Of a stretch of DNA of 60,000 nucleotides, positions 22,851-60,000 are shown piece after piece. Position 1 is the stretch's first letter; every line of letters starts with the position of its first letter. A model generated the notes under the pieces. It did no database searches, was not told the origin of the DNA, and saw only the letters and a list, made by a program, of their open reading frames with translations. This stretch comes from Malacoraja senta. Lineage: Eukaryota. The DNA lies in assembly GCA_038087875.1 (NCBI GenBank), contig CM075987.1, forward strand, positions 18,478,001 through 18,538,000, in the 5' to 3' direction. A program made the translations under genes and the position numbers.

Positions 22851-22948
22851 AGGTAGACAAAAATGCTAGAGAAACTCAGCAGGTGAAGCAGCATCTATGG
22901 AGTGAAGGAAATAGGCGACGTTTCGGGTCGAGACCCTTCTTCAGACTG
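22851..22948 (-). mobile_element. Penelope terminal-repeat fragment with an intact hammerhead-like core
   Basis: Minus strand CTGAAGAAGGGTCTCGACCCGAAACGTC at 22917-22944. Confidence 0.75.
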
Positions 22949-26590: not shown

Positions 26591-27530
26591 AGTAGACAAA
26601 AGTGCTGGAGAAACTCAGCGGGTGCGGCAGCATCTATGGAGCGAAGGAAATAGGGAACGTTTCGGGCCGAAACCCTTCTTCAGACTTCAGGTTATAGTTA
26701 AGACAGAGGAAGAGAGGAAAGAAAGGACATCTCAGATGTCCTAGAATGGAAAGTCATCATGGGAGCAGATGCGGTGGAGGCCGAGGAATTGAGAGTAGGG
26801 AACAGCAAAAGGCAGGGTGGGAGGGAGCGGAGTCCAGATAACTGCGGGAGTTGGTAGGTTTATAAAAAACATATGTAGATAGTTTGTCCCCTGTGATGGA
26901 GACAGAGGACAAGAAAGAGGAGAGAGGTGTCAGCGATAGTCCAGATAAATTTGAGGGCATGGTGGAAGTTAGTGGTGATGTTAATGAAATCCACAACTTT
27001 TGAAGGGATGTAGGAGGCAGCCCAGATGCAGTTGTCAATGTAGTGGAGAAAGAGTTAAGGGAAGCGGCCAGAGGCGATGCAATCAGAAACAGTTTGGCCG
27101 ATGTATTCGTCTGTGGGGTTATGTTCAAGGTGCAGGTATGATGAGGAGTCCGAGAACTGACGCCAGCTTAGCATGGTTGAGGTCAACCTGCCAGACTACA
27201 ACAACTCTTCCCTTGTTGGTGGGTTTAATATAATGTTGGGATTGCAGCTAAATTGGCAGAGGGCTGTGTGTTCAGAGGTGAGATTGGAGTATCTGAGTGG
27301 AGTAAAGAAGTCAATATAGTTGATGTCGTACCGACAGATGGAAATAAAAAGGTCCAGAGAAGGTAAGAGGCAGGCACAGGGGAAGGGGGTGAGGTGGGGC
27401 AGGGTTCAAGAGGAGAATGTTGGATACAGGAAAAGGGGTTGTCACTGGGAGGCGAGGACTCCTTCCCATAGAGAAAAGCCCAGAGGCGTGGCAATGGAAG
27501 AAAAGCTCTACATCATGCTGGGCCCGGAAG
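26591..27530 (-). mobile_element. Penelope-like fragments (terminal repeat plus decayed RT/thumb region)
   Basis: SVSITGDKLSTYVFYKPTNSRSYLDSAPSHP in ORF 26757-27128 resembles the Penelope RT C-terminal motif; hammerhead-like repeat at ~26656-26683. Confidence 0.7.
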
Positions 27531-30899: not shown

Positions 30900-31660
30900 A
30901 CCTATTCCGTAGGCTTTGGAGAAGATCCAGGCCAGGTTGGCGGCGATTTTGGCCCTGGAGGAGTCGTACAGTTCCAGCGGGACAACCTCGGCGCAGTCCG
31001 AATCCAGCGGCTCCGGCATCTTCCTGCGGCTGCTGCCATCTCCAGACGCACCGCAGCCGCCGAAATCCACATCCACCATCGCAAGTCAGGTAATAAAATA
31101 TTTTTTTTTAAAGCGTAATCTTCCAAAAAAAATTAATAAAGATCCCCAGTAAAATCGCCCTCCTCAGCAGAATCGCTGCATTAATTCTCCTCGGTGACCG
31201 CCTACCTGAGGATGCGGCCTACAACGTGACACCCCAATGAATGGGAGTATTTTTTCTTTTTCTTTTTAAATGGCAGAGGCTGCACCCAGGAAAGGTCGGA
31301 TCGATGGTGTCATGAAGTGCGGGTCATGGTGGTCGAAGCGGCGTCCCTTTTTCTGTGTGTGTGTGTGTGAGAGAGTATGTTTGTGCCCTGGGCCGACCGG
31401 CCGCTCCGCTCCCCTCCTTCAGCTCGTCCGTCGACGCCGCCGCGGCCGTTAGAGGCGCGCGCGCCCGCCCCGCCGCCGCCCCCACTGTGCGCGGGTTGGA
31501 CGGGCACGCCCCCCCACCACCTCCCCAACCGTCGGCATCGCTGCGTTCCCAACGCGCGTGCGCGACGCGGAAGGGCGTGCCCACGCTCCGCCCAGCGCCG
31601 GCCGCGCGCGCGCATCGCGTCACCAAGGTAACGTTCTCTCCGTGGCGGGAGATTCGAATC
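30900..31660 (-). promoter_or_regulatory. CpG island / promoter and 5' UTR of CAMSAP1
   Basis: Very CpG-dense (CGCGCGCG, CCGCCGCCG, CCCGCCC GC boxes) around 31390-31620, just upstream of the start codon; TSS not determinable from sequence. Confidence 0.8.
30902..31079 (-). CDS. CAMSAP1: Calmodulin-regulated spectrin-associated protein 1, first coding exon
   Basis: MVDVDFGGCGASGDGSSRRKMPEPLDSDCAEVVPLELYDSSRAKIAANLAWIFSKAYGI matches the CAMSAP1 N-terminus as I recall it (..VPLDRYDAARAKIAANLQWICAKAYG..). Kozak GCGATGG; 178 nt ending in phase 1 at donor G|GTAACA. Exon 2 not seen in the window. Confidence 0.93.
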
Positions 31661-31802
31661 GGATGATTTGCAGCTTTTCATTTTCCAAGGTTTATCTCCC
31701 TGCATCTATCTTAATGCCACTTCTGTATCTGCCTTCTCCACCACCGGCAGCATGTTCCACAGCTCAACACTATGTATAAAAACGTGTCCCATTCTATTAA
31801 AG

Positions 31803-32965
31803 TTAGACAAAAGTGCTGGAGAAACTCAGCGGGTGCGGCAGCATCTATGGAGCGAAGGAAATACGCAACATTTCGGGCCGAAACCCTTCTTCAGACCAAA
31901 GATCTTATAGCGGAGCAAGATAGACCACTCCTTCTAAATGCAATGGGCTGACGTACGCAACAGAGCGGAACGAGGGCCTTTTTTTCATCCATTTCAGTAA
32001 CCCGATCCGACCTGACCCGACCCGTCTCGCAGTGTAATCAACGTTGTGGGGGAACAGTTTGTGTTAATAAATTATAATTCTGAAAATGAGGATAAGATTT
32101 TTACCAAATAACTTTGATTTTTACGAGGATGTTTCCGTAACCGGCTTCCGTCCCTGCACTAGTTATCTTTGCTCCACTATGGGATCTTTGGTGCGGAGAC
32201 GGAAGCCGGTTACGGAAATGGGGCCGAAAATTACCCATGAATCTGCCCATGACCGTACTACGTCTTTTTCATCGAGTGGACTATCTTGCTTGCTATAGGA
32301 TCTTTGCTTCAGACTGATGTAGGGGGGGGGGGGAAGAAGAAAGGAAGAGGAGGAGCCAGAGGGTTGAGGGAGAGCTGAGAAGGGGAGGAGCCAATAAGGG
32401 CTACCGGAAATTGGAGAAGTCAATGTTCATACTGCTGGGGTGTAAACTGCCCAAGCGGAATATGAGGTGCTGCTCCTCCAATTTCCGGTGGTGCTCACTC
32501 TGGCCATGGAGGAGGCCCAGGACAGAAAGGTTGGATTCGGAATGGGAGGGGGAGTTGAAGTACTGAGCCACCGGGAGATCAGATTGGTTATTGCGGACCG
32601 AGCTGAGGTGTTCGGCGAAACGATCGCCAGGCCTACGCTTGGTCTCACCGATGTAGATCAGCTGACATCTAGAGCAGCGGATGCAATAGATGACGTTGGA
32701 GGAGGTGCAGGAGAACCTCTGTCGCACCTGGAACGACTGCTTGGGTCCTTGAATGGAGTCGAGGGGGGAGGTAAAGCGACAAGTGTAGCATCTTTTGCGG
32801 TTGCAAGGGAAAGTGCCCGGGGAGGGGGTGGTGCGGGTGGGAAGGGAAGAATTGACCAGGGAGTTACGGAGGGAGCGGTCTTTGCGGAAAGCAGACAGAG
32901 GGGGAGATGGGAAGACTTGGCGAGTGGTGGGGTCACATTGGAGGTGGCGAAAATGATTGAGGACG
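31803..32965 (-). mobile_element. 5'-truncated Penelope-like element encoding linker and GIY-YIG endonuclease (ORF part ~32401-32965), interrupted by a MITE
   Basis: CNRKRCYTC...FSCTSSNVIYCIRCSRCQLIYIGETKRR..DRFAEH...KLEEQHLIFRLGSLHPSSMNIDFSNFR* is a GIY-YIG domain with Cys/His linker; terminal repeat at 31803-31896. Confidence 0.9.
31897..32306. mobile_element. hAT-type MITE (410 bp)
   Basis: Imperfect ~33-bp inverted termini CAAAGATCYTATAGC..AGCAAGATAGWCCACTC; perfect 8-bp TSD CTTCAGAC at 31889-31896 and 32307-32314; internal ~28-bp inverted repeat at ~32133-32218. Confidence 0.88.
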
Positions 32966-33339
32966 CCACGTCGATGCTGCCATTCCTTCTTTCCCATTCT
33001 ATTAAGCTGCAACATGACATCCTGACTCTTATACTCAGTCCCCCAAGGCAAGCATATCGTACAGCTTCTTTACCATTCTATCTACTTGTGTTGCTACTTT
33101 CAGGGAGCTATGGACATGGACCCCAAAATCGTTCTTTAAGCTCTTATGAAAACAAGGTTGAAAGATGACCTCAGGACATATGAAATGGAAACATGAATTT
33201 GCTCCTCACCATTTGATACACCATTCACTCAGATCATGGTTGATTCTAAACATTGATGCCACTATCTTGAAGTAATCCGATTTCTATCAATTACCTCAAT
33301 ATTTACAATTCAATCAATCTCTTTCTTGAATATACCTAG

Positions 33340-34014
33340 ATGCTTCCTGGGAATCCACATTGAGGAGGACCTGACGGAGCGTGAACACCTCTGCGCTGCT
33401 GAAAAAGGTCCAGCAGAGACTGTACTTCCTGAGGGTGCTCAGGAAGAACAACATCACCCAGAGACTGCTGCTATCCTTTTATCGATGCTCAATTGAGAGC
33501 ATCCTAACATACTGTGTATGCGTGTGGTACACCAGCTGCACAGCGGCTAAGGGGATAGCGCTCCAGAGGGCTATTGACAATGCCCAGAAGATTATCGGCT
33601 GCCCTCTCCTCACCTTGGAGGACCTACACAGTTCCCACTGTCTCAAAAAACCCAAGAAGATCATAAAGGACATTTTCCACCCCGGTCACTCCCTGTTTGA
33701 ACTGCTGCCGTCAGGCAGACGGTACAGATCAATGAGGACAAGGACAAACAGACTCAAAAACAGTTTTTATCCCACAGCAATAAATACACTTAATGTAGCC
33801 ACCAAATGAGTACAGGTGCGCTACACACCAAAGGGACTGTGAAATCGACAGAAGAATGTGTGTTTTTTTTCATGTGATTTATTTTAGTTGTTTATCTTAG
33901 ACTTTTGCTCGAAGGAAATGTGTGAATGGTGCACTGACTGGTTGGCATTTCTAATTTCGTTGTACATGTTTACATGTTATAATGACAATAAAGTATTCAT
34001 TCATTCATTTATTC
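33340..34014 (+). mobile_element. Rex1/Babar-like LINE 3' fragment (RT C-terminal region)
   Basis: KKVQQRLYFLRVLRK..LLLSFYRCSIESILTYC..VWY...HPGHSLFELLPSGRRYRS..TRTNRLKNSFYP; ends in AATAAA plus a (TTCA)n tail. Confidence 0.85.
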
Positions 34015-51839: not shown

Positions 51840-52085
51840 AGTGAGATTAGGGTAGACAAAAATGCTGGAGAAACTCAGCAGGTGAGGCAGCATCTATGGA
51901 GCGAAGGAATAGGTGACATTTCGAGTCGAGACCCTTCTTCAGACTGAAGAAGGGTCTCGACCCGAAACGCCACCTATTCCATCGCTCCATAAATGCTGCC
52001 TCACCCGCTTAGTTTCTCCAGCATTTTTGTCTACCTTCGATTTTTCCAGCAACTGCAGTTCCTTCTTAAACAGTGAGATTAGGGT
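51840..52085. mobile_element. Penelope-derived fold-back element with two opposed hammerhead-like cores and 14-bp TSD
   Basis: ~90-bp arms centred on CTTCTTCAG-A-CTGAAGAAG; TSD AGTGAGATTAGGGT at 51840-51853 and 52072-52085. Confidence 0.88.
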
Positions 52086-54519
52086 GCTTGTTCACAGGAT
52101 GGCAATCAAATATCACCACCTTTAACCAAGTCTAAACCCTTTAATCACTTTAATATATTACTGGGTTGTAGAATTAATTGAAATAACAATCAACAGATTG
52201 TTACTGGACCAACAGTTTTCCAAAATTCCACGAGTGCCAGATTAATAATGTATTATAGTACATAGAACTGCATGATGAAGGGAGTTGTGGAACAAGATTC
52301 TGGGAATCGTCAAGCTTGTTGAATTGGCATTGTCAGCTTTGATGATGTAAATTCTTATTTTAGATGCTTTGGTTAAGGCTGCCAATTATGGCTGAAATTT
52401 ACTATTTCGAAGATGATATCATAGAGCCCAGAATCTTTCCAACAGTTTTTATCCCCAAAAATGTTCAAGGAAAATTAGAACGGTCACTTTAAAAAATACA
52501 TTCTCTCCACTTGCTTACACAGGCATCAATCCCAGGAAACTCCAAGGCAGGACTAGTCAGGGTAAAATGCAGGTAAAACACAAAATCAAAGTGGTAAAGC
52601 TTACCAAGGTTGACAGGATTTCAGAGCCGACGTAAAGCATCGGATTAACTGTGATCTCATCTAATACTGGAGCAGGCTTGAGGGGCAGAGAAGCTTCCGG
52701 ATGCTCCAGAGTGGTTGCATGAACAGTGAGTTCACTATCTCAGTGCAGAACAACACAAATATTATTTTATGCAGCTGCTCAGTTAGTGTGTAAAGTTCTG
52801 TTACAGAGCAGCTGAGGATGGATGGGTTACAATGTCACATGGGAAGAAATGCCACACAAACACACTCCATTGAAACCATCTTTACAGTAGTGCATCTATA
52901 TAAATATTGGCAATTAGAGCTTACCACAAAAAGGCTTTCTAAATTTCTTTTTACTTCTTTATTTAGACAAAAGGGCATAGTTTTAAGATGAGAGGGGCAA
53001 ATGCGCAAGGCAAGTTAAAAAAAAATCTTTATAAGAGTCGTGGGTGCCAGGAACGCACAGGCAAGGCATGGTAGAGGCTGATACGATAATACCATTGAAG
53101 AGACCTTTAGATCGGCACAAGAATATGCAGGGTATTATGAATATGAAGGTTATTGATCATGTGTAGGTAGTGATTAGTTTATCTTGGCATCATGTTCGGC
53201 CTGGACATTGAGGGCCAAAAGCCCTGTTCCTGTGCTGTACTGTGTTCAGTTCTATTTAAATTTACATAGAACATTTCTTTGCTGTCAAATAGTTCTCTTA
53301 AAAATGGGTTAATGATAGTCCTTTTTCAATTGTGAATTAATGAAAAATAATTTGCCACTTGGCTGCAGATGCAAATACTCAAAAATACAAGGCCACTGGT
53401 CATTTTCTGCTTGGTGTTATGATCATAAGACAATTTCAACTTCTCCATCATTCCTCCCTTCCTAATTCCTACTCGTGGAATTACTTGCATTTCAAGGACT
53501 TCAAAGTCTTATAGGAACTCCTTACCCAACAGCACAACATCACAAGGACTGAAGTGGTTCAAGGCAGTTCACCACCACTTTCTCAAGCAATTATTGGCAA
53601 TACATGCTGCCATTGCCAGGTACAGCCATATTCTGCAAATGAATAAAAAGGTTACTGCTTTAATTGTAGGGAAAATGACAGCAATTCTGCACCCAAGGTC
53701 CATAAACAGTAATTATACAAATGACTGGATAATCTGCTTTCATAAGGATAGAAATTATAGTGGCTTGGACACGGAAAATGGATCCCTTATTGTCTAAAGC
53801 CTAGACTTCGTACTCTAGAGCTGGATGGAAATGCACAATCTTGAGATTTCAGCACCAAGCCATGTCTAACATCCATTTAGTGTGGTGGGACAACTAAAAT
53901 CTCAGAGATTAGCTTTTTAATAGAATTACATGCATTACATAGTTTAATGTCCTGGCTCATCGGGTAATGTTATTTAATTTATGAGTAGCGATAACCAGAA
54001 GAGCAGCCATTATCTGTGCAAGCTTGTTCTGTTCAATTCCCACCCACCCTCCCTCTAAAATCAACACGGTCGAAAATTAAAAAAAAAAAAGATTCTGGAA
54101 ATTGAAATTAAAATCAAAAATGGAGAAAACTCAGCTGGTTCATTTGCAATTTAAACTGTCCGGTTCTTTTCCCAACAAGCTATTAGCTATATTGGCCTGG
54201 TAATCTGACCCACACTTACACCGTTTACTCATTAAACAATCCAGCAATCAACAACATCCATTATAGAATTTACAGAGTAATCCTGTGCAGATGCATCTCC
54301 AGGAATGCTGGAGAAAATGAGTTTGCAGCTCTCAAGCCTCCACATCTTCCGCCGTGTTGTCGAGAGTTCTTAGTACGTACTAGTTCCAATGGTGTATTGT
54401 TAGCACTTTAAACAACTGTTTACCGTAGCTAATCTAGTTACATTTGAAACCCTTTAATTATCCACACAGGGTAATGCTATAATTTAAGTCATCTACTCAT
54501 GCAAATTATTCAAATAAAA

Positions 54520-54833
54520 TCAAAAGACACTTTCAAATCTTTTATTGCAAATAAATAAATTCCAAACATTTTGTTAAACAACCTGAAATCATAGTTCACA
54601 TTAGTATTAGAACTGTGCACTTCACAATCCACAAAACCAGTTCACAGTCACTCCAAATAGGTACAGGAAATGGAGGAATTGTGCCAATTGTCTGACTTGG
54701 GAAAGGATTGAGGTTTGTTTTTACAAGCAATTGCAATTAATCAGAACACAGTAAAGACAGCTGCAACACCAAATTGCAATGCATTTTCACAAGGAGCTGT
54801 ATTGGTCTGATGAAACCTGTGACTCTATAAACT
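54520..54833 (-). other. Putative terminal (3' UTR) exon of the unidentified gene, with polyadenylation signal
   Basis: Acceptor TATTTCTGCTGTTCCCCAG before 54833; AATAAA at 54541-54546 followed by GU/U-rich GTGTCTTTTGATTTTATTT; candidate partner donor CTG|GTGAGT at 55952-55957. Confidence 0.5.
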
Positions 54834-55055
54834 CTGGGGAACAGCAGAAATACTTGAATGCATTCCTTTCCCTTGTCCACCAGACACATCCAGAATTGCA
54901 CCACAATAGATTGTGACACAATTAACCACAGTAGTGTTAGCTATAATTCTTTAGTTGCTAATAACATCTTTAGATTTGGGGCTGCCATGAATGCTGGGCT
55001 AATCATATTAGTATTAGAAATATGCATTGCTAATCATATTTTAGGTAAGATTAGA

Positions 55056-55257
55056 CTGGAGCAAGTAGAAGAGAACATTTTAGTCCAGATTGCCTCAAGA
55101 TGGTTCTCATAGTAGATGCTCATAAGCAATATTGAATCCAGATGCACTAATCTAGACCGAGTAGATGAAGACAACATTTTAGTGCACATTGCCTCAAGAT
55201 AGTTCTCATATTAGATGCTCACAGGCAATATTGAATCCTGATGCACTAACCTGGAGC
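55056..55257. repeat. Two-copy ~95-bp tandem repeat
   Basis: AACATTTTAGT.CA.ATTGCCTCAAGAT.GTTCTCATA.TAGATGCTCA.A.GCAATATTGAATCC.GATGCACTAA occurs twice. Confidence 0.9.
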
Positions 55258-56033
55258 ATGACAGTGTCTGCTCGGATCTATTGATGGCAGATTTACATAT
55301 TTTGTTGTGTTCATTGCAAAGACCTGATAAGTGGGATGGGACAGTGAAATCAATGCACAGCACAGAGCCAACTCTTGTCTCTCTCTTCCTGGCCCAAGGT
55401 CTACTCCTTTGTTTAAATTCATATTTGTATTATCTGGCAGGGCTGGATAAAACCATGAAAGAAGTAGGATCAATGTGTCTATCTTCCGAAACGTATGATC
55501 AGTTCAGCCAAGTGGAGTCCATGCAATAATCTTACCTCCCCCCACCCCCCTCTAACAAAAAAGTATTTTCTTTCATCTACAATTTGCAGTGAACTTGGCC
55601 ACAATTCAACAAAGAAAGGAAACCATTGAGGTTGAAGTACTTAGCCGAGTACCTTCTTTTCATACTTCTGATATGAACAAATAATTTTCCATTAGAGTGT
55701 GAGATCAGAATTAGCATTGATTTCCCAACAGAACAATCGAGCAGGTGAATTTGGATCAGGCCTGATCCAACCAAGTCCCCAAAACACTGCAGGACTGTCC
55801 CTAACTGGTGACTCTCCAACATTAAATGTTGATAATATGACTCTTAACAGAATAACGTAACCTAGAGTTGATGTTCTGGGTTCTGATAAATGAGACCAAG
55901 TAGAGGAGTAAGCCTGGTCAAAGGAGTTTAGTGGCAGATTTATGGAACTTGACTCACCAGCCAAATCCATGCCACAATTAACAAAACAGTAGATCAACCA
56001 AGTGTCTGTGCATAAGGAACTGATAGAGCTCTG

Positions 56034-56115
56034 TCAACATTTGCAGAAGATGCCAATCACGTTTGCAGCTGGATTTCGAACAGGAAACCCTGTTGAGATG
56101 TGTGTCAATGAACAT
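56034..56115 (-). CDS. Last coding exon of unidentified gene: (K)CSLTHISTGFPVRNPAANVIGIFCKC*
   Basis: Acceptor TGATATACCTTGCAG; phase-2 start fits the preceding exon's AA end (AA+A = Lys); TGA at 56034-56036. Confidence 0.62.
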
Positions 56116-57488
56116 CTGCAAGGTATATCATGGTCAATTTGCAAGCATCACTTACATTAAAAACTGAATGCTCAGGTCTTCCAACTCTCACTACAGTTAG
56201 TTCAAAGACCACCTGGAAACTTCTTTGCTGCGCTACAGAATTTAATCTGACAGGCTGTAAAATCTTGTTTACAGAACACAATCGTGGCAAAAAGTTGAAG
56301 GGAGTGAATCCAAGGTGATAAATCTAGCATCAGCCAGAAAAGGTCTGGTTGCATGAAACATGCTTGTACTGGGACCTAACCAAACCCCTTATGTTCTCAA
56401 AGCATACATTAGTCTCTCTCTCCCCTATTTTTCATCTGCTCATTCTCCCCATATACAATTGTGACCTCAATTAATGTTATTACAAACTGATATAGTAACT
56501 AATTTGAAAATGCAGAACTGTTGAAATAGGATGACAGCATTTGTGCTCCAACTATCTAAATATAGAGAGGGGATTATATCACAAATGGCTGATATGTTCA
56601 AGCCCTTATTAAAGCAAGTCAATTTCAAACAGAAGAGGAGGAAATTTTGAAGATCCGTCTTAGAAGTAAAACAAAAACAGCATAATTGGAAGAGGAAGGA
56701 AATTATTCAGTTCAAATCATGGGATCAATTCAAATCTAAAGTTCAAACTCAATTACTACACAATATCTGATGCAGGATGATCAATTGTATTTGTCCCATC
56801 TGATTTTGTATCCTACACAGCTAAAAACACCGCTGTAAATCAAATGAAACAAACAATGGTGCTTCCAGTATCCAAGTGATATTTTCTAAACTATAAAACT
56901 ATAGGTTTGGGATGAATGGCAGAAAGTGACGAATACTGCTGCAAAAATGAGATAATAGTTGTGTATTTCATCATGTACAATGTTATCTTGTATTTGTTGG
57001 TTAACTGTGATAAGCAAGGGACTTCTAGAGGGAAAGCAGGTTCTGCATTTAATACTGGAGTGCACAGGTCTGAACTTCCCTACTGCAGCTTTTATGAAAG
57101 TATCGTGCAAAGCAAATTGTGTCAACCATGTATCTGCTCAATGCAGTTGCATGTCCCATAAATAAATAAATTGCTAGTGACCAATATACAGTCAAGGGAA
57201 AGGTCATGTATCATTCGTCAGATCTCAGTGAAGGTTTCAATCTTAGCAAGTCCTACTTCTCAATACAAATTCAGAGTTCAAGATGGCACACTTTCTGTGC
57301 CAGAGTATCAGGATACAGATTTAGTGATTTAAAAACCACACATCAGTGTTCTGCTTTCAGTGTGAATTCCTTGCTTACAACTGGAGGAATCATTTGAAAA
57401 TAAAATGTCCTGGAAGAGCAAATATATATTAATATGACCCAACAGATATTACTTTTTCAGTAAGAAAATAATCTTAGAAAAGACATAC

Positions 57489-57583
57489 TTCTGCAAACTA
57501 AGTGACTTCATATTAAACTGGACATCAAAATGGCCATCCATCTCAAAACCATACTGGTCAAGAAGATAATTGGATTTTGGTGC
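57489..57583 (-). CDS. Internal coding exon of unidentified gene: APKSNYLLDQYGFEMDGHFDVQFNMKSLSLQ(K)
   Basis: Long polypyrimidine tract ending TTTAAAG, donor AA|GTATGT; 95 nt; only the phase-0 frame is stop-free. Confidence 0.75.
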
Positions 57584-58254
57584 CTTTAAAAAAAAAAAAT
57601 GGAGAGGTAAGGTGGTGGTTAATAACATACAATTTCTCTGGAAATTTGCCTGATTTGACTGCAAGGGAAGTCCCAACCACACAATCTGGTTCACAAATGC
57701 TGTCAGATGTCTGATCACAAAAATGTCAATGGATTTCAATCAACGGTTGTACAATTCATTGACACATTTCGTTCTCATGGGCAGCATTTCAGATTATCCA
57801 GATGCACCGCTCAATTATAGAAATGATAGATAAACAAAGCTGCAGGGTAGTCATTCTGCACGAGCCAATTAGTTTGCCTTAGACATAAAGGTGCAGAGAT
57901 AATTCAGTTCCACATCAAAGCATCCAGTTAATGGACCAATATTCAGGTGATAAATGGGCATTCATTCTCCTGCCCTCCACACATTTACTCTCTACTTAAA
58001 TCAGGTAAGCAGATAAGGAATCACACAAAATACTGGAAACACTCACCAATGCAGCCAGTGTTGAGGGTATGGGTGTGTGTGCAGATGTTGTTGGTCCACT
58101 GAGGTATCTCCAGCATCTTGTTTTTTCGCAGTATTTTGCTTTGGTATCAAGATTAGTGTATCTTTCTAATTACGCGAATAAATTAACAGATTTGGAGTGA
58201 AACCTATGCATCTAGTAAACAATCAGCAAGCTATTAAGAAAATGACAGTGGGAC

Positions 58255-58493
58255 ACTTTAAACCTGCGGTAGACAAAAATGCTGGAGAAACTCAGCGGGT
58301 GCAGCAGCATCTATAGAGCGAAGGAAATAGGCAACGTTTCGGGCTGAAACCCTTCTTCAGACTGGTTTCGGCCCGAAACGTTTCCTATTTCCTTCGCTCC
58401 ATAGATGCTGCTGCACCTACTGAGTTTCTCCAGCATTTTTGTCTACCTTCGATTTTCCAGCATCTGCAGTTCCTTCTTAAACTTTAAACCTGC
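58255..58493. mobile_element. Penelope-derived fold-back element with 13-bp TSD (intronic)
   Basis: Inverted ~80-bp arms; TSD ACTTTAAACCTGC at 58255-58267 and 58481-58493. Confidence 0.85.
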
Positions 58494-59161
58494 ATTTTCT
58501 GTCAGATTTCATCAGGTGTTATTCCTCAAGGGAACACATGTCATTTAGTGCCAAATGTTTAGTGGTAACTGTACAATACCAATGCCAAGCAAGTCTTCAA
58601 ATTAGTCATCAAGAGTAAGAAGTCAGAAGACCTCAATAATATTTTTACTGGCCCTACTAGATTCTACGACCATAAGACTAAGGCAAGTGTGCCAAGTTGC
58701 GGCTGGCTCTACCTCACTTGTTTTACAATATGCAAGCTCATAGAAAGCTTCTAATCCTACCAAATGAGATGATCAAAGTACGAGAAGCAACTTAACAAAG
58801 TATGTCCAAAATATCAAGCATGTGTGCTGCATAATGAAAGACTAGGAGGGTAATGAAGTGAGCAATCTGCCTAAAATCGACATTACCCCAAATGTAGAGG
58901 GTATAGTGATAAAGGCTTCCAGACAAGAACCTAGCAGCCTCAAGCTCCAAGTTTTGAAAGAAAGTTCAAAACCAAATATATTTTATTAATAGACACAAAC
59001 AAATGATTTAAATAGTCCAGTAGAACTCCACAGCCAAGTGGGTTTTTATTAGCTACTTTTACTTTACCTCGATAGTAAATGTCAGTAAGCCATGAGTGAG
59101 CTAATATTGAGTGGTCACAATTCCACAATGCACAAGGCAGGCATATATATAAGAAACATAC

Positions 59162-59292
59162 TTGCCACTTTGATTGTCTTGCTATTGCATCTTTCTGTAC
59201 CAATAAGGGCCATTCCAACACAGGTGACCGTTCCATTACTGGAGGATCACATTCACAGAAAACGGTCTGTGTCATGATTTTCTGTGCATCAT
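59162..59292 (-). CDS. Internal coding exon of unidentified gene: xDAQKIMTQTVFCECDPPVMERSPVLEWPLLVQKDAIARQSKWQ
   Basis: Acceptor CTCTTATTTCCTCACGTGTGCAG, donor CAA|GTATGT; 131 nt; only one frame is open and it ends in phase 0, matching the next exon. Confidence 0.75.
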
Positions 59293-60000
59293 CTGCACAC
59301 GTGAGGAAATAAGAGTTGGAAAACATTACTCTTTGCCCGACCCCCCCCACCCCCCCACATTTTCTAAGAGGACACTCACATCCCAGATTTTTGGATTGTG
59401 ATTTGCGAACTCTACAAGGGCGAATTTCCATTACCCAAACTATAGGGGGTGGGGGGGATTTGAAGGGAAGAGAGATGGAAGGAAAGCACACACAAGCAAT
59501 TCTGCACCCACCACAGGAACAAATGCTCATGCTCGATATCAAATGTACTGAAATGTTCCAACTACCAGACATGTAAAGTTGTTGACATTTGTAAAAGTAT
59601 GCCCAAGATCCAAATCTGATCCAGATGAAATGTTTGCACCTATAATAAAACAAATCTATTTAAAAGCCAATGTAAACCATTTATCATTTTACACAAAAAT
59701 TGCCACCTTAAAATGAACTGTGGAACCCTTAGCAACAGACTTGTTTATAATATCTCAAATAAAATGAGATTCATAATATCTTACTGTCCTCTTACACCTC
59801 TAAATTTGCATCGATTTGATTTCAAAATTCAAATCCTAATATTAAATAATTTTGATGAATTCATTATAATCTGCAAATTCCTTATCAGGTCAAAATAGCT
59901 AAAAATTATTTAGAATACACACCACGTTCAATGATATTTGGTATAGTTCTTCAGTAATTCAAACTATTGTACAAACAATTGAAAATTTGGGATACTTGTG

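Follow-up and report, generated by a model that had tools for sequence, protein, structure and literature searches.

Splice sites and a long open frame upstream of CAMSAP1 in the skate Malacoraja senta: a possible non-coding 3' tail

Does the DNA 25 kb upstream of the first exon of CAMSAP1, on the same strand, hold the 3' end of an unrecognised protein-coding gene? The window analysed here is a stretch of 60,000 nucleotides from contig CM075987.1 of the Malacoraja senta assembly GCA_038087875.1, and a preliminary description of it had proposed such a gene end from three minus-strand exons:

59292-59162, minus strand: exon 1, 131 nt and 43 codons, entered in phase 1 and left in phase 0, with an AG acceptor and a GT donor.
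57583-57489, minus strand: exon 2, 95 nt, 31 codons and a split codon, running from phase 0 to phase 2, with an AG acceptor and a GT donor.
56115-56034, minus strand: coding part of the terminal exon 3, with an AG acceptor, running from phase 2 to a TGA stop that directly follows a CxC motif.

The canonical splice sites and chaining phases reported for these exons are confirmed. All three acceptors are AG and both donors GT, the phases run 1/0, 0/2 and 2/stop, and joining the three exons by their coordinates yields a read of 101 codons with a single stop, located at its end. The donors of exons 1 and 2 both read GTATGT. One further exon can be proposed on the upstream side:

59566-59639, minus strand: a possible upstream exon of 74 nt, with an acceptor in the top 1.7% of background sites and a weak donor (top 9.6%).

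This candidate is phase-compatible with exon 1 in one frame and directly with exon 2 in another, and none of its three reading frames that were scored has a protein-like composition. We also considered, and dropped, a junction from exon 2 to potential exons at 52.6 or 48.9 kb, as those candidates are of background pseudo-exon quality.

The splice signals are correct, yet the three-exon chain is not above chance. Scoring was conducted with vertebrate splice matrices that are approximate, as are the amino-acid tables used for composition. On this scale, the acceptors of exons 1, 2 and 3 are equalled or surpassed by 91, 20 and 239 of 2513 AG sites in the background (top 3.6%, 0.8% and 9.5%), and the donors of exons 1 and 2 by 98 and 165 of 2248 GT sites (top 4.4% and 7.3%); exon 2 combines a strong acceptor with an ordinary donor. 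At thresholds matching the proposed exons, the 41.6 kb of background contains 80 open pseudo-exon frames at 39 acceptors. Of the 36 overlapping 4-kb windows of background, 21 contain a phase-compatible chain of two internal exons and a terminal exon with a summed score at least equal to that of the proposed chain; chains of at least that score also occur in 59 of 200 Markov simulations. When equal amino-acid composition is required along with equal score, 5 of 18 non-overlapping background windows still contain a chain; these comprise 2 of the 4 windows in the CAMSAP1 intron, 3 of the 9 plus-strand windows and none of the 5 intergenic minus-strand windows. A terminal CxC closes 3 of 1030 background frames, and any Cys-terminal motif 51 of 1030.

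Composition was then scored exon by exon. Exon 1 is mildly protein-like, exon 2 neutral and exon 3 not protein-like: the fraction of null fragments that score at least as high is 0.04 for exon 1, about 0.19 for exon 2, 0.84 for exon 3 and 0.11 for the whole peptide, compared with 0.013 for the CAMSAP1 exon used as a control; the exon 1 figure, by which it beats 96% of the null, was computed after that exon had already been selected. A sliding composition score peaks at exon 1, with a protein-like stretch that starts and stops at the splice sites of this exon. Exon 1 is the most credible piece of the proposed gene and exon 3 the weakest. In addition, exon 1 sits within an unusually long open frame:

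About 58940-59659, minus strand: a stop-free frame of 239 codons in non-repeat DNA, containing exon 1 in frame.

This frame is the longest at 33.2-60 kb and is matched by none of 200 regional and none of 2000 local block shuffles. Its protein-like character is confined to exon 1, the flanks showing non-coding composition and homopolymer runs. The frame is above chance; rare frames of this kind become more likely to turn up when many windows are scanned, and it may have been this one that attracted attention to the locus.

The neighbouring gene had been taken to be CAMSAP1, and this assignment is secured by a Pfam match together with identity to skate CAMSAP1-B:

31079-30902, minus strand: first coding exon of CAMSAP1, matching Pfam CH_CAMSAP2_N at E=1.3e-6.

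All 59 of 59 residues of this exon are identical to the proteins P0001 and P0030. The best matches are CAMSAP1-B of two skates, at 100% over the aligned part, and other cartilaginous fishes follow at 71-90%. Of the skate protein P0001, the window covers residues 1-61 and no more, so the stretch from 12 to 30.8 kb is CAMSAP1 intron 1. A CpG island (31001-32000, GC 0.54-0.56, CpG observed/expected above 1.1) extends across the CAMSAP1 promoter and first exon. Inside intron 1, an AT-rich microsatellite of some 7 kb (about 4200-11500) falls to a GC content of 0.13 and includes a 200-base assembly gap at 4592-4791.

In human, UBAC1, which encodes a protein of about 400 residues, and CAMSAP1 lie on the same strand. 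Among the matches listed in supplement 2 of PMC5571153, UBAC1, CAMSAP1 and KCNT1 follow one another directly in alligator and a number of birds, within a study whose stated scope excluded fishes. Because fishes are absent from that study and UBAC1 lies outside our window, the synteny is extrapolated to the skate. Our literature search returned no paper on the CAMSAP1/UBAC1 neighbourhood in skates or sharks, and the Pfam search of 300 frames at 33.1-60 kb returned neither a UBA domain nor UBAC1 coding sequence.

Signals of transcription were assessed from base skew and polyadenylation hexamers, and the following features were located:

54501-60000, minus strand (sense): a region of T-over-A skew, 0.080 (z 4.5) in non-repeat DNA, continuing past the window end.
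54541-54546, minus strand: an AATAAA hexamer followed downstream by T/GT-rich sequence, a candidate 3' end.
58982-59050, minus strand: two AATAAA hexamers (at 59050 and 58987), candidate proximal 3' ends.

Elsewhere the same minus-strand skew is 0.041 within intron 1 of CAMSAP1 and 0.003 in the intergenic DNA (31.8-54.5 kb). A change point fits best at 52.5 kb, a result reached by 11 of 1000 block permutations. Across intergenic windows of 5.5 kb the skew stays at or below 0.027, compared with 0.080 at 54.5-60 kb. Along the CAMSAP1 intron, 2-kb bins range from -0.06 to +0.12. The skew matches that of transcribed DNA: PMC2927911 describes TA skews that are positive along vertebrate genes and maximal at their 3' ends, with asymmetries in fish that differ from those of mammals, and transcription has been predicted from such skews in work outlined in PMC1391917. 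Between 54552 and 58980 there is no minus-strand AATAAA, compared with four on the plus strand; with a background of about one AATAAA per kb, the hexamer at 54546 is weak by itself. If the pair near 59.0 kb represents 3' ends, exon 1 would be placed within a 3' UTR. Taken together, skew and hexamers point indirectly to the probable end of a minus-strand transcript here. The 239-codon frame and the minus-strand skew are the two features above chance here. A tandem duplication (55068-55255, 89-base unit, 89% identical) also lies within the putative 3' tail.

The reading that we favour, at barely better than even confidence, is that the region is the non-coding 3' tail of an upstream minus-strand gene and that chance alone put the three-exon peptide together. 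Such a tail would be a long 3' UTR, the last introns or read-through, with the coding exons past the window end, and the transcript would end close to the 54.5-kb AATAAA or to the two hexamers around 59.0 kb. From amniote gene order, the upstream gene would probably be UBAC1. Inside this tail, ordinary AG and GT sites would have aligned by chance into a three-exon chain from which no protein would be made, and the role of the tail would lie in cleavage and polyadenylation ahead of the CAMSAP1 promoter, plus regulation at the level of the UTR. The chance level of the chain, the lack of annotated homologues up to 2000 residues, the skew and the hexamers are shown directly, whereas for this account we infer transcription, the identity of the upstream gene and the absence of translation. 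Speaking against it, the 239-codon frame and the exon 1 composition bounded by splice sites are left unexplained, an equal chain is missing from all five intergenic minus-strand control windows, and the skew is equally compatible with introns of a coding gene. The reach of the word searches described next, which stop at 2000 residues and in which shorter members sit under longer cluster representatives, is a further point against it.

In order to find annotated relatives of the peptide, searches were conducted on shared 5-residue words. Exon 1 yielded no candidate among proteins of 77-2000 residues with at least three shared words, and the 45-codon stretch containing exon 2 none among proteins of 80-2000 residues with three shared words; exon 3 is too short for this search, which spans up to 2000 residues and in which short cluster members are hidden under longer representatives. 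As a positive control, the same search with CAMSAP1 exon 1 recovered 29 proteins from 39 candidates, at identities down to 57%. The top cluster of this control contains RefSeq proteins from three skate species along with Logan-derived fragments, and many shark proteins are also in the database. Many words would be shared with an orthologue annotated in a skate, so that at about 80-2000 residues the peptide has no annotated counterpart. This agrees with the earlier impression that the peptide is not UBAC1-like, since exons 1 and 2 match no annotated protein of that size range, UBAC1 included.

Broader searches gave the same result. Exon 1 had no match at E<=0.001 among 1,835,955,588 representatives. 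In Pfam, no family was matched by any single exon or by the 159- and 239-codon frames, a search of low power for such short pieces. A scan of frames of at least 40 codons at 33.1-60 kb (150 of 150 minus, 150 of 163 plus) gave none at the curated cut-off, with a best E of 0.0016; the 13 plus-strand frames outside it comprise 10 at 33.2-36 kb and 3 on an intronic repeat. PDB sequence searches with the single exons and the 239-codon frame, also of low power, returned one match at E 0.73 and nothing else, and the 239-codon frame itself has no PDB sequence match. In the ESM Atlas there was no usable match for exon 1, and the best hit for exon 2 (0.79, SymE-like short clusters) was a lead only and was rejected. 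Metagenome and viral contigs gave 58, 587 and 3 pattern matches, none of them confirmed as a relative. In an exact look-up the exon peptides were absent, but so was the control exon, which makes this result uninformative.

One alternative is that the exons do code for the end of an annotated protein, either one of more than 2000 residues whose C-terminus evolves fast or an isoform concealed beneath another cluster representative. Such a protein would escape word searches that reach 2000 residues, as would fragments clustered under long representatives, and a distant-vertebrate representative of a 50% cluster could miss E 0.001 with a query of 43 residues. The composition of exon 1, bounded by its splice sites, is in keeping with this alternative, and the skew and the distal AATAAA suit a gene end. 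However, none of the 1.84 billion representatives matched exon 1, nor was there a match in Pfam or PDB, and the composition of exon 3 is not that of a protein; to our knowledge, no large vertebrate protein ends as the three-exon peptide does. We consider this alternative unlikely, if worth keeping in view. The proposal that the three exons form a protein-coding gene is unsupported, given a chain at chance level, a terminal exon that is not protein-like, and no homologue in a database that holds three skate proteomes. What had been observed is accurate, but as a gene model it is without significance; that a transcript ends here is probable, whereas a new protein is unproven.

A skate-restricted, unannotated or young coding gene, either spliced as proposed or with the 239-codon frame serving as a single large exon, appears improbable to us. 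In its favour, none of the 200 regional or 2000 local shuffles gives a frame as long, the only protein-like exon lies in frame within it, the strand that looks transcribed is the right one, and the lack of a homologue in every search is what such a gene would show. Such a gene would lie between CAMSAP1 and, if the amniote order holds, UBAC1, and would have been missed by three RefSeq annotations. However, at least one of the three skate RefSeq sets would usually include a model for a well-expressed frame of more than 100 codons. Also against it are the non-coding composition and homopolymer runs of the frame's flanks and the enrichment of rare frames by a scan of many windows. The single-sequence AlphaFold prediction of the 239-codon frame has a pLDDT of 33, a value that is uninformative without an alignment.

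The exons might also be truly spliced yet untranslated, as part of a long non-coding RNA or a spliced 3' UTR. Canonical sites, one strong acceptor, transcription-like skew and the lack of a protein homologue are all consistent with this. However, splice scores of this level are common in the background, the in-frame phases are left without a reason, and Rfam gives no family at gathering score in the window, i.e. no sign of a small-RNA host; this alternative we judge rather improbable. Nine Rfam hairpin (microRNA-precursor) matches below threshold were recorded, and all nine fall on copies of a single palindromic repeat:

58257-58486, no strand: a dispersed palindromic repeat that lies between exon 1 and exon 2, with 36 self-matches in the window.

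The repeat is 91% self-complementary over 180 bases and forms hairpins, and many further copies were found (for example at 828-923, 22852-22948, 26592-26686, 31804-31896 and 51851-52071). Other frames in the window are candidate mobile-element sequences. Two overlapping minus-strand frames at 1993-2651 resemble a putative broken Tc1/mariner transposase, a 222-codon minus-strand frame at 32401-33069 the putative GIY-YIG end of a Penelope-like retroelement, and a 144-codon plus-strand frame at 33375-33809 the putative C-terminus of a LINE reverse transcriptase.

Finally, it is very unlikely that the region is untranscribed intergenic DNA in which skew and open frame are fluctuations: the chain is at chance level and the skew of 2-kb bins varies as widely within the CAMSAP1 intron as noted above, but just 11 of 1000 permutations attain the change point, and intergenic 5.5-kb windows stay at or below 0.027.

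If the region is a non-coding 3' tail, the three-exon peptide matters little, beyond showing that vertebrate non-coding DNA readily yields a plausible spliced peptide. If the gene were real, as junction reads together with purifying selection would indicate, skates would have an unannotated orphan gene within a neighbourhood of genes that is deeply conserved, and gene birth in a slowly evolving lineage could be studied on a tractable example.

Compared with known systems, the locus resembles UBAC1 (KPC2) in position, which in amniotes is directly 5' of CAMSAP1, and a minus-strand transcript appears to end here; it differs in that neither UBAC1 coding sequence nor a UBA domain was detected in the window, and exons 1 and 2 have no annotated match at the size of UBAC1. 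The LLDQYGF stretch, a short helix-Gly-aromatic-strand pattern, loosely resembles the C-terminal half of class I SAM methyltransferases, as had been suggested, and equally GNAT motif B and the luminal domain of GPR107/108; LaeA-like methyltransferases were also considered as a presumed resemblance. As the pattern fits three unrelated folds, it is a poor discriminator. Class I SAM methyltransferases are marked by a glycine-rich motif I and a Rossmann-like fold, and any motif I here would lie upstream of the window. No exon has a Pfam or PDB sequence match, in searches of low power with short queries, and the methyltransferase idea is unsupported.

The peptide shares a terminal CxC with the Rab GTPases, which had suggested Rab-type prenylation. 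Prenylation of Rabs requires binding of REP to the GTPase fold, so that a CxC alone is no signal. Unlike a Rab, the peptide has no GTPase family match in Pfam, and exons 1 and 2 have no homologue at Rab size; at about 200 residues a Rab falls within the searched lengths, and the idea is not borne out. The closest likeness in splicing is to pseudo-exons, the chance open segments between AG and GT in introns and UTRs, which have splice sites of equal strength and chain in phase in the same way. The difference from these lies in exon 1, which is protein-like in composition and sits inside an unusually long open frame.
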